Shown: piece after piece, positions 29,190 to 29,597 of the stretch
Position numbering within the stretch: position 1 is the stretch's first letter
Layout of the letters: the number at the start of each line of letters is the position of its first letter
Source: an archaeon
Lineage (GTDB): Archaea > Nanobdellota > Nanobdellia > Pacearchaeales > GW2011-AR1
Assembly: GCA_018653485.1 (NCBI GenBank)
Contig: JABHZE010000006.1
Span: 196,491-260,490 of the forward strand
Direction of reading: 5' to 3'
Length of the DNA: 64,000 nt
The notes under the pieces: generated by a model
Database searches by the model: none
What the model was told of the DNA's origin: nothing
The model's input: the letters and a program-made list of their open reading frames with translations, nothing else
Program-made: the position numbers and the translations under genes

Positions 29190-29199
29190 ATTTAAAATA
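29190..29199 (+). promoter_or_regulatory. Putative TATA box (ATTTAAAATA) upstream of the tRNA locus
   Basis: Centred about 28 nt upstream of 29223, the first base of the upstream tRNA 5' fragment. Confidence 0.45.
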
Positions 29200-29222
29200 C
29201 CTAGAAATTTATTATTTTTAAT

Positions 29223-29308
29223 GGCCTCATAGCTCGCGAGCCCACTCAGAATAAAAGAATCATAGATTCTTTGTGAACTCGCTCGGCTCAGCCAGAAGTT
29301 AGAGCACT
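29223..29308 (+). other. Partial copy of the tRNA-Lys 5' portion (acceptor 5' strand plus D arm), interrupted by a 54-nt self-complementary insert
   Basis: GGCCTCATAGCTC is identical to the intact gene. The insert follows (GCGAG...AAGAATC-ata-GATTCTT...CTCGC), then GCTCAGCCAGAAGTTAGAGCACT. No anticodon arm follows. Confidence 0.55.
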
Positions 29309-29347
29309 TAATTTAAATAATTGTGCGACTATCTTAAAAGAGTATAT

Positions 29348-29422
29348 GGCCTCATAGCTCAGCCCGGTTAGAGCACTGGACTCTTAATCCAGGTGTCGGG
29401 AGTTCAAATCTCCCTGGGGCCA
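29348..29422 (+). tRNA. tRNA-Lys (anticodon CUU)
   Basis: Cloverleaf folded by hand: GGCCTCA/TGGGGCC acceptor, GCTC/GAGC D stem, CTGGA-CTCTTAA-TCCAG anticodon arm, GGGAG-TTCAAAT-CTCCC T arm, discriminator A, then a T5 run. Confidence 0.92.
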
Positions 29423-29451
29423 TTTTTATTGATAGGATTGAACTCACGACT

Positions 29452-29537
29452 GTCGGGAGCGAGTTTTTAGATTTTCATAAAATTTGATTTTTTGGAAGAT
29501 TAAAATTTGAAAAGGAGTAAAATCCTCCCTGGGGCCA
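29452..29537 (+). other. Partial copy of the tRNA-Lys 3' portion (T-stem 5' strand ... T-stem 3' strand plus acceptor 3' strand), interrupted by an AT-rich insert of about 60 nt
   Basis: GTCGGGAG, then the insert, then AAAATCCTCCCTGGGGCCA followed by T7. Confidence 0.55.
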
Positions 29538-29597
29538 TTTTTTTATTAGTGTTTTAGGATAATCTTTTTTAAAAACCTAGGTATAATCTTTTTTATT

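Follow-up and report, generated by a model that had tools for sequence, protein, structure and literature searches.

An intact tRNA-Lys(CUU) gene flanked by partial copies of its own two ends in a Pacearchaeales genome, and the recurrence of such copies at tRNA genes of related archaea

How interrupted, split and permuted tRNA genes arose in archaea has long been asked; disruption by integrating DNA is the explanation most often favoured, and very few intermediates have been observed. The present analysis concerns a tRNA-Lys(CUU) locus in a stretch of 64,000 nucleotides (hereafter, the window) from an archaeon of the Pacearchaeales (assembly GCA_018653485.1, contig JABHZE010000006.1, positions 196,491 to 260,490 of the forward strand), in which the gene lies between interrupted partial copies of its own 5' and 3' ends. 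The original prediction, made by reading the sequence, had offered three explanations: a multi-intron, split or nested tRNA gene, a decayed local duplication, or attachment-type scars of an element that targeted the tRNA. The results indicated that the locus is one working tRNA-Lys(CUU) gene with non-functional copies of its own two ends, and that the outer pieces are neither spliced nor a second tRNA. On balance, the flanking pieces are probably scars of short insertions that duplicated the tRNA ends, and this process has recurred at numerous tRNA genes in DPANN archaea of the Pacearchaeota/Woesearchaeota type.

Several described systems resemble this arrangement. In the attachment-site (att) duplications of archaea, made by integrases of the SSV/pNOB8 type and by the integrated mobile genetic elements of Thaumarchaeota, tRNA-end repeats flank the inserted DNA and an intact gene is kept (PMC6563490). 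The att sites measure 8-26 bp; they can be re-used in tandem, integration at the 5'-distal part has rarely been documented, and the known tRNA-targeting integrases strongly prefer the 3' part of the gene (PMC6563490). In Caldiarchaeum, a 5' fragment of tRNA-Thr was left by a recombinase-bearing element (PMC3293823). Casposons produce target-site duplications of 14-15 bp at tRNA 3' ends, and the casposase inserts short DNA ends (PMC6977970, PMC5137440). The disrupted tRNA genes of Thermoproteales, Nanoarchaeum, Caldivirga and Thermofilum are interrupted in the D-loop, the anticodon region and the T-loop (PMC4033280, PMC3218864). Such genes are common in DPANN archaea, to which the present host belongs. 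The splicing endonucleases of DPANN archaea have an extra loop, L3, associated with disrupted tRNA genes, and may accept relaxed bulge-helix-bulge (BHB) motifs, and DPANN tRNA sets are often incomplete (PMC5829648).

The intact tRNA-Lys(CUU) gene (29348-29422, forward strand, as are all features below) folds canonically by ARAGORN and matches Rfam family RF00005 with 69.6 bits (E=4e-13), in agreement with the original prediction. It is the sole tRNA of the 64-kb window by both ARAGORN and Rfam and the only functional RNA gene detected at the locus. The partial end copies described in that prediction were all found in place on both sides. Upstream, a TATA box (ATTTAAAATA, 29190-29199), probably the gene's original promoter, is followed by part A of the outer 5' copy (29221-29235; tRNA positions -2 to 13, ATGGCCTCATAGCTC), a 15-nt exact repeat of 29346-29360. 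The copy is then broken by ins1 (29236-29285), a hairpin-forming insert (GCGAG...AAGAATC-ATA-GATTCTT...CTCGC-TCG). This insert had been parsed as 54 nt; it is self-complementary as stated but measures 50 nt, flanked by a 4-nt direct repeat GCTC (29232-29235 and 29286-29289). Part B (29286-29308; tRNA positions 10 to 28, GCTCAGCCAGAAGTTAGAGCACT) contains the exact blocks GCTCAGCC and GTTAGAGCACT, and its D-loop reads AGAAG where the intact gene has CG, with G18G19 split by two extra A residues (AGCCAG-AA-GTTA). The spacer s1 (29309-29347) carries the TATA box of the intact gene and is unlike the sequence 5' of the outer copy.

Downstream, the spacer s2 (29423-29450) begins with a T5 terminator (29423-29427), and the repeat scan revealed at its end an inverted T-arm copy that the original prediction had missed. 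This copy, TTGAACTCACGAC (29438-29450), corresponds to the variable region, the T-stem 5' strand and the T-loop start, and is complementary to 29395-29407 at 12 of 13 positions. It abuts part C of the outer 3' copy (29451-29459; tRNA positions 45 to 53, TGTCGGGAG), which begins 29 nt past the intact gene and exactly repeats 29394-29402, and 29443-29450 forms a near-perfect palindrome with part C. The AT-rich insert that follows, ins3 (29460-29513), had been predicted at about 60 nt and measures 54 nt; it starts with CGAG, contains a T5 and a T6 run, and is bracketed by a GGAG repeat. Part D (29514-29544; GGAGTAAAATCCTCCCTGGGGCCA plus T7) comprises GGAGT, a degenerate T-loop TAAAATC, the T-stem 3' strand, the acceptor 3' strand, the discriminator A and a T7 run (29538-29544); it is identical to 29399-29427 at 25 of 29 positions, the final 13 nt being exact, and is probably the original 3' end with its terminator. 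All outer pieces share the strand of the intact gene and are collinear with it.

The terminal 14-mer and 12-mer are each confined to their two sites in the 64 kb, where 0.13 and 0.74 matches, respectively, would be expected by chance with at most two mismatches, and the region 29066-29597 is 100% identical in four independent assemblies (JGI, Logan and two from ENA). Because the repeats are exact and rare and the four assemblies agree, the structure is real and non-random and is no assembly artefact. A miniature inverted-repeat transposable element or small insertion sequence would have terminal inverted repeats, a short target duplication and multiple genomic copies; ins1 has GCGAG/CTCGC termini and the GCTC repeat, ins3 has the GGAG repeat, and both inserts are single copies in the 64 kb and in the roughly 1 Mb of relatives searched. 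No second copy of ins1 was found in either; a similar stretch at 40869-40893, inside an open reading frame (ORF) of 324 aa, was dismissed as chance similarity.

A second tRNA could not be built from the outer pieces. No segment of the outer copy supplies positions 29-44, and the anticodon arm that the original prediction had been unable to fold cannot be assembled; a hand search of s1, s2 and the inserts on both strands found no arm for Lys(UUU) or any other anticodon. The conserved G18G19 and T54-C56 are lost in the outer copy (D-loop AGCCAGAAGTTA, T-loop TAAAATC), and Rfam gave zero tRNA matches on the outer pieces even at E<=10. When long introns and 70% stringency were allowed, ARAGORN proposed a poor "tRNA-Met(CAT)" at 29439-29538, which was rejected for its mispaired acceptor, its 27-nt extra arm and its lack of Rfam backing. 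The fold z-scores of the outer pieces ranged from -1.2 to +0.3 against shuffled sequences (-0.4 for ins3), and no fold-stability signal above shuffled sequence was seen for them.

Splicing was assessed with a purpose-written scanner for strict hBHBh' motifs, calibrated on 42 predicted anticodon-loop introns of related loci. A perfect BHB was recovered in 24 of these 42 canonical introns, with cleavage after the second bulge nucleotide. The strict scan of 29180-29560 found no cleavage sites fitting the borders of ins1, of ins3 or of the 29309-29450 gap, relaxed motifs being checked by eye and with RNAfold only; BHB-like matches in this region numbered 22 versus 17±4 in shuffled sequences. A 9-bp complementarity (29276-29284 with 29457-29465) was detected, not next to usable exon ends. 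For a split tRNA of the Nanoarchaeum type, the locus thus offers halves that have neither BHB nor anticodon, with this one complementarity only; for a multi-intron gene, it has neither a border BHB nor a complete cloverleaf; and for a circularly permuted gene, the order is wrong, the 5' pieces lying upstream and the 3' pieces downstream, as in all 21 cases among relatives. The interruptions fall in the same regions as those of the disrupted archaeal tRNA genes, the D-loop, anticodon region and T-loop; unlike in those genes, no border BHB exists, the pieces never sum to a tRNA, and a complete gene lies between them. The original prediction had itself listed a lack of BHB motifs at the insert borders among the findings that would indicate pseudogene debris; no strict motif was found there, and its multi-intron, split or nested reading is not upheld.

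The recurrence of such copies was surveyed in 80 genome loci with endonuclease III homologues and 28 metagenome loci sharing the anticodon-arm block (numbered with the prefix L below), a sample biased to tRNAs near endonuclease III (Lys, Glu, Gln, Thr). Polarity was tested on 125 non-redundant Pacearchaeota/Woesearchaeota tRNAs using 14-nt end probes with at most one mismatch, within 400 nt of the gene. A copy of the tRNA's own first 14 nt was found upstream in 11 of the 125 and downstream in none, and a copy of the last 14 nt was found downstream in 10 and upstream in none. No opposite-strand copy of either end occurred among the 125, and control probes from other tRNAs gave about 0.5 matches per class. 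About 16% of the tRNA genes of the lineage (about one in six) have such end copies. The 5' copies stop at position 14-17 (eight cases), 21-23, 28-30 or 40, and the 3' copies are 11-19 nt long, most of them 13-19 nt; overall, the lengths range from 11 to 40 nt and cluster at 13-17, and all end points fall in cloverleaf loops, the T-loop included. Arrays of two or three units were seen in L090, L120 and L043, and copies more than 600 nt away beside tRNA-Glu only (L043, L059, L081). The copies are intact in some lineages and partly degraded in L045, L110 and L081, as expected for relics, and orthologous tRNAs of sister species lack copies or have them on the other side (L075, L082, L084).

Nested arrangements were also found. 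In L019 (4331-4760), an intact tRNA-Lys(CUU) gene is enclosed by two outer halves, one 5' (positions 1-40) and one 3' (31-73), which share ACTCTTAA at both break points. Its outer acceptor strands, GCCTCTG and CGGGGGC, pair mutually and differ at five of seven positions from the inner GGGGATG/CATCCTC; no in-register BHB was found for removal of 4374-4727, nor any strict BHB at the borders in L019 or in five other modules. Splicing of the inner T-loop to the 3' copy was considered for five modules and rejected, the one BHB found, in L050, excising 2 nt too many. In L110/L005, the nearest lineage to the window, the outer 5' half (1-40, three changes) is unbroken and located 65 nt upstream, and a decayed 3' region ending in CCCCGAGGCCA lies downstream. 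The corresponding outer copy lacks ins1; therefore, if the outer copies are orthologous, ins1 would be a later insertion into a dead copy. The outer D-loop of the window equals the AGCCAGGTTA allele of L114, L010 and L079 plus the AA insertion. The tRNA-Lys genes of the best endonuclease III relatives have canonical introns (L117-119, L120), and the L116 contig has no tRNA. The known RNA families in six module-bearing loci were tRNAs, an rRNA end and RNase P RNA only.

The sequences between the copies are shared among different tRNAs and genomes. A 65-nt insert, X, is 92-96% identical in L084 (2591-2655), L082 (2875-2939) and L050 (1386-1434) and always lies between tRNA fragments, of tRNA-Phe in L082 and L084 (in opposite orientation to the tRNA in L082 as compared with L084) and of tRNA-Met in L050. 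It carries TCACTTCGTT, a motif also present in the modules of L024, L042 (reverse), L054/L044 and L043. Another insert, Y, follows position 14 of both tRNA-Phe (L009) and tRNA-Lys (L090), and the slot that holds one hairpin insert in L076 holds a different one in L040, both occurring in L045.

On the 3' side, a module grammar is common to Lys, Phe, Leu, Glu, Gln, Met and Thr tRNAs. A spacer or hairpin is followed by an inverted copy of the T-loop start, the T-stem 5' strand and the variable region and then by a direct copy, the two being joined as a palindrome with a centre of 0-2 nt; next come CGAG(CA), a hairpin insert of 45-75 nt, often GGGAGT, and finally the copy of the host 3' end. The 3' side of the window matches this grammar piece by piece, and the position and CGAG start of ins3 are as in the relatives. 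The inverted T-arm element follows tRNAs of other specificities at the same place in L082, L050, L076, L043, L061 and L037, and palindromic junctions were found in the window (29443-29459), L082, L050, L076 and L043. In the 200 nt downstream of tRNAs, CGAGCA shows a 10-fold enrichment (14 observed versus 1.4 expected, P=3e-10; sites in L015, L031, L035, L040, L043, L045, L050, L076, L081, L102 and L120); it does not occur within the tRNAs themselves. It is often preceded by a T-loop-like TTCGAAT(T)C, and TCCGAGCA occurs five times versus 0.1 expected. GGGAGT is shared next to tRNA-Glu and tRNA-Gln.

The homology of the copies is bounded by the tRNA termini, since, beyond the copies, the flanks show no relationship to those of the intact genes in eight of nine cases on the 5' side (local alignment versus shuffled sequences) and in all cases on the 3' side except within arrays (L043). 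A tandem duplication including the flanks was considered and found support only in L084 on the 5' side, the sole promoter-containing tandem duplication there, and in the L043 array on the 3' side; for the window, p was about 0.2 (5') and 0.34 (3'). An empty site is available at tRNA-Glu(CUC). In L067, the native flank CA(C/T)AATAATTCTTAAAAACA directly follows the tRNA, whereas at the occupied sites of L040 and L045 this flank comes after the distal 3' copy, a module of 134 or 359 nt having intervened; therefore, the distal copy is the original gene end. The nearest lineage of the window, L110/L005, is itself nested. By analogy, the original ends of the window gene are probably the outer pieces, which carry the canonical promoter and the T7 run. 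A direct repeat of the tRNA end, ending at the gene terminus, thus lies on both sides of inserted DNA. Together with the polar recurrence, these results indicate that the decayed-duplication and att-type alternatives of the original prediction pointed in the right direction.

The promoters were scored with a position-weight model built from 125 tRNA promoters of the lineage. In the 60 nt upstream of the genes (L005-L122 and the window), the TATA octamer begins at -31 to -28 in 44 of 124, with an A-rich transcription factor B recognition element ahead at -34/-33. This rigid placement indicates that the tRNA transcripts start at or very near +1 and are leaderless or nearly so; leaderless tRNA transcripts have been reported for Nanoarchaeum. 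The outer 5' copy scored 5.7 (start 29222/29223) and the intact gene 3.6 at a 4-nt displacement, the median of real tRNA starts being 3.4 and the 99th percentile of random positions 3.7. The upstream copy has the best promoter, as predicted, but the intact gene, which had been credited with only a TATA-like stretch, does have a TATA box (TTTAAATA, 29312-29319) at -36 to -29, about 4-6 nt off the lineage norm. An outer copy with the better promoter was also found in L009, L042 and L090. The 125-nt stretch between the outer 5' copy and the intact gene contains no run of four or more T, and read-through from the outer promoter is therefore possible; about half of the 125-nt windows in this genome likewise lack a T5 run. 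Since RNase P RNA is present in the lineage (L084, 1552-1873; 76 bits, slightly below the Rfam threshold), a long leader could be trimmed. The T5 run directly after the intact gene and three further runs (T5, T6, T7) in the 3' pieces make a common transcript unlikely on that side, so that the predicted single transcript is plausible for the 5' part of the locus and not for the 3' part. Many tRNAs of the lineage have a T at -1 and a T at +74, which lengthen the acceptor helix.

Taken together, the flanking pieces are somewhat better read as insertion scars than otherwise. The original gene would have spanned the canonical promoter at 29190-29199 to the T7 run at 29538-29544, and short non-coding modules of about 40-130 nt would have inserted on both its 5' and its 3' side. 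With each insertion, the adjoining tRNA end would be duplicated in the fashion of an att site or a target-site duplication, so that the intact gene persists and the displaced original ends are pushed outward; the 50-nt hairpin ins1 would probably have entered the already dead 5' copy later. The anatomy, the missing tRNA features and BHB motifs, the polarity across the lineage, the confinement of homology to the tRNA, the recurrent insert families and one empty versus occupied site are direct observations; for the window itself, the insertion origin of the copies and the order of events are inferred, and no candidate enzyme is encoded nearby. More tentatively, the modules may belong to an undescribed class of miniature (about 40-130 nt) non-coding elements of Pacearchaeota/Woesearchaeota that duplicate tRNA ends; such elements would share the module grammar, insert at the cloverleaf loops of many tRNA genes at either end and accumulate in arrays.

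Several results weigh against the insertion reading. No integrase, transposase or Cas1, and no recombinase domain, was detected among the nine ORFs neighbouring the locus, and none was seen between a tRNA and its copies across the roughly 1 Mb of sequence from relatives. The inserts are far too short for autonomous elements, those of 39 nt and 28-100 nt in the window being non-coding. The flanks have no match in viral, phage or plasmid records: exact searches of IMG/VR with the tRNA ends and with inserts X and Y gave no match or only chance or unrelated ones, and blastn against phage and plasmid collections gave generic tRNA-Lys matches only. The ratio of 5' to 3' events is about 1:1. The 3' modules hold host-specific inverted and direct copies of the 5' half of the T-arm, joined as perfect palindromes, which a pre-formed mobile element could not carry and which suggest that DNA was synthesised on the target, through snap-back or template switching. 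Across the matched blocks of the window, all 61 nt are identical to the intact gene; therefore, the events are recent or the blocks are maintained by gene conversion or selection. In L067/L081, a 15-nt copy changed at 1 of 15 positions, as compared with roughly 35-40% (by eye) in the neighbouring spacer. Finally, the organism of the window has no close relative in the databases, so the history of this locus cannot be traced.

The comparison with the described systems is likewise mixed. The copies resemble archaeal att duplications in that tRNA-end repeats flank inserted DNA while an intact gene is kept, the repeats are bounded by the gene terminus, their length (11-40 nt) overlaps the reported 8-26 bp, and tandem arrays arise through re-use of a site; the stranded 5' fragment upstream of a working gene recalls the Caldiarchaeum tRNA-Thr fragment. 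Unlike the duplications made by integrases, the inserts are non-coding and of 40-130 nt, the two tRNA ends are affected equally often, no integrase was detected in the vicinity, and the modules hold host-derived palindromic T-arm pieces. Casposon integration is similar in being site-specific at a tRNA gene end, in its tandem insertions and in the size of the duplication (eight 5' copies of 14-17 nt and most 3' copies of 13-19 nt here). In contrast to casposons, the duplicated sequence is the last 11-19 or the first 14-40 nt of the tRNA instead of about 4 nt plus flank, and its length varies. No casposon-type terminal inverted repeats, Cas1 or PolB were seen, no dedicated whole-genome search for Cas1 having been made.

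The main rival is a replication error involving no mobile DNA, which we regard as distinctly less probable than insertion. Snap-back or template switching at the hairpins of the tRNA (T-, D- and anticodon arms) would produce direct-inverted-direct partial duplications, later remodelled by deletions and filler, and the outer pieces would be decaying by-products. Tandem-inversion duplications have been described in Salmonella, and the locus resembles them in the direct-inverted-direct order of the T-arm, the near-spacerless palindromic junction and the break points at hairpins; it differs in its scale, tens of nucleotides instead of kilobases, and in the unrelated shared families between the copies. 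The palindromic junctions (0-2-nt centres) of host variable region and T-stem 5' strand in the window, L082, L050, L076 and L043 argue for such an origin, as do the copy end points in cloverleaf loops (14-17, 21-23, 28-30, 40 and the T-loop), the true tandem duplication with promoter in L084 and the lack of any recombinase gene seen. It leaves unexplained the non-tRNA families (X, Y, CGAGCA, and GGGAGT at tRNA-Glu/Gln) common to different tRNAs and genomes, the homology that ends exactly at the tRNA termini in nearly all cases, and the 40-130 nt of new sequence between the copies.

By its neighbouring proteins, the window belongs to a Pacearchaeota/Woesearchaeota-type DPANN archaeon (GTDB Nanoarchaeota). 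The host genome has a G+C content of about 30% and comes from marine oxygen-minimum water. The endonuclease III of the window shows no more than 78% identity to any other database sequence, and both genes flanking the tRNA locus are ORFans. In the relatives L099, L103, L098 and L005, a TFS-like gene, tRNA-Lys and endonuclease III lie on one strand. In the window (27540-31036), the tRNA block and a 182-aa ORFan with an HExxH motif are inverted relative to the TFS-like gene and endonuclease III, and a secreted ORFan of 284 aa lies between the tRNA and endonuclease III. The inverted block and the intervening ORFan indicate that the locus has been a rearrangement hotspot.

These surroundings bear on an improbable alternative, in which the copies are remnants of full-size viruses or plasmids that used tRNA-Lys as attB, once on the 5' and once on the 3' side, and were then almost completely deleted, leaving attL and attR about 100 nt apart. 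Such integration classically leaves direct repeats of tRNA ends that stop at the gene terminus, the archaeal att precedents (PMC6563490) and the Caldiarchaeum 5' fragment (PMC3293823) are documented, ORFans lie on both sides of the locus, and the tRNA block is inverted with respect to the gene order of the relatives. The ORFans, however, lie outside the repeats and not between them, no integrase remnant was found in the searched loci, and in each of some 20 independent cases the copies are only 40-300 nt apart and the interval follows a shared grammar, which random deletion of kilobase-sized elements would not produce. In L059 (441-3800), the tRNA-Glu 3' end recurs 3.1 kb downstream of the gene, and the interval, which may be a cargo island that entered at the tRNA, encodes radical-SAM/SPASM-like and HExxH proteins but lacks a recombinase gene.

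It is similarly doubtful that the outer pieces have a function in the tRNA precursor, as a long leader transcribed from the strong upstream promoter and perhaps a trailer, mimicking the acceptor, D or T stems and steering processing, folding or expression. The better promoter of the outer copy in the window, L009, L042 and L090, the 125-nt leader free of T4+ runs, the RNase P RNA of the lineage (L084), the 100% identity of the matched blocks in the window with changes confined to loops, and the L067/L081 copy that is better conserved than its spacer would all fit such a role. It is not favoured because the distribution is patchy and the copies are decayed: only about 16% of tRNA genes have copies, sister-species orthologues have none or carry theirs at the opposite end (L075, L082, L084), and those in L045, L110 and L081 have decayed. 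Moreover, about half of the genome's 125-nt windows have no T5 run, no fold-stability signal was seen, and a trailer would lie behind the T5 terminator.

Least of all can we credit a genuine nested, multi-intron or split tRNA, whose outer exons would be spliced into a second tRNA (e.g. another Lys isoacceptor) with the intact gene inside an intron: the L3 loop and often incomplete tRNA sets of DPANN archaea (PMC5829648), the mutually complementary outer acceptor strands of L019, unlike its inner gene, where excision of 4374-4727 would give a perfect cloverleaf, and the 9-bp complementarity in the window are outweighed by the missing anticodon arm, the lost G18G19 and T54-C56, the lack of Rfam matches on the outer pieces, the absence of a strict BHB at the borders in the window, L019 and five other modules in a lineage whose canonical introns have it, the T-runs that would end a shared transcript, and our own estimate that a 9-bp match within 350 nt is expected about 0.2 times by chance.

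Further rearrangements were observed at tRNA genes of the lineage. In L044 (reverse strand, about 2000-2400), a full-length tRNA-Thr(CGU) copy with a slightly degenerate T-arm was missed by ARAGORN; it contains a 55-nt D-loop insert without BHB and a 47-nt canonical intron with a perfect BHB. In its sister L054 (1520-1730), an intron-less gene has the same promoter, and a 5' remnant immediately upstream of it carries the same D-loop insert, 98% identical; this pair may show one step from stranded fragments toward interrupted tRNA genes. The tRNA-Phe gene with its promoter is inverted between L082 and L084, the orientation of the adjacent insert X being unchanged, and at least three tandem promoter-plus-T-arm remnants lie upstream of tRNA-Phe in L084. 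In L050 (1494-1720), a small ORF with a putative HNH signature (DAHHVDGNKNNNRPSNLRAV, by eye) separates the 3' module of tRNA-Met from tRNA-Leu, itself followed by a 3' module; a homing-type endonuclease beside rearranged tRNA genes is possible. The anticodon-loop introns of tRNA-Glu(CUC) in about 27 loci (e.g. L061:3735-3960, L067:2141-2342 and L081:1977-2263) are 61-220 nt long and share a conserved core, ..GAGAGGTGATCAAA.CTCGATGAGAG..TCTAGCATCTCAATGCAATCTCTCG.., which might be an intron-encoded small RNA.

In summary, the appropriate annotation of the locus is a single tRNA-Lys(CUU) gene with pseudo-fragments on either side, and not a split or nested gene; standard tRNA finders miss interrupted copies and ignore long leaders in these genomes. 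The main interest lies in scars that are lineage-wide, polar and patterned. Across this DPANN lineage, about one-sixth of the tRNA genes show fresh-to-decayed intermediates of the disruption by integrating DNA that has been proposed for archaeal tRNA genes, strictly polar and with shared insert families, and the question is made testable by comparative genomics of thousands of genomes and by metatranscriptomics. If the class of miniature tRNA-end-duplicating modules exists, the module process would be a live source of stranded tRNA fragments, long leaders and insertions inside tRNA-derived sequence, and its products would be the raw material that has been proposed for non-canonical introns and split tRNA genes.

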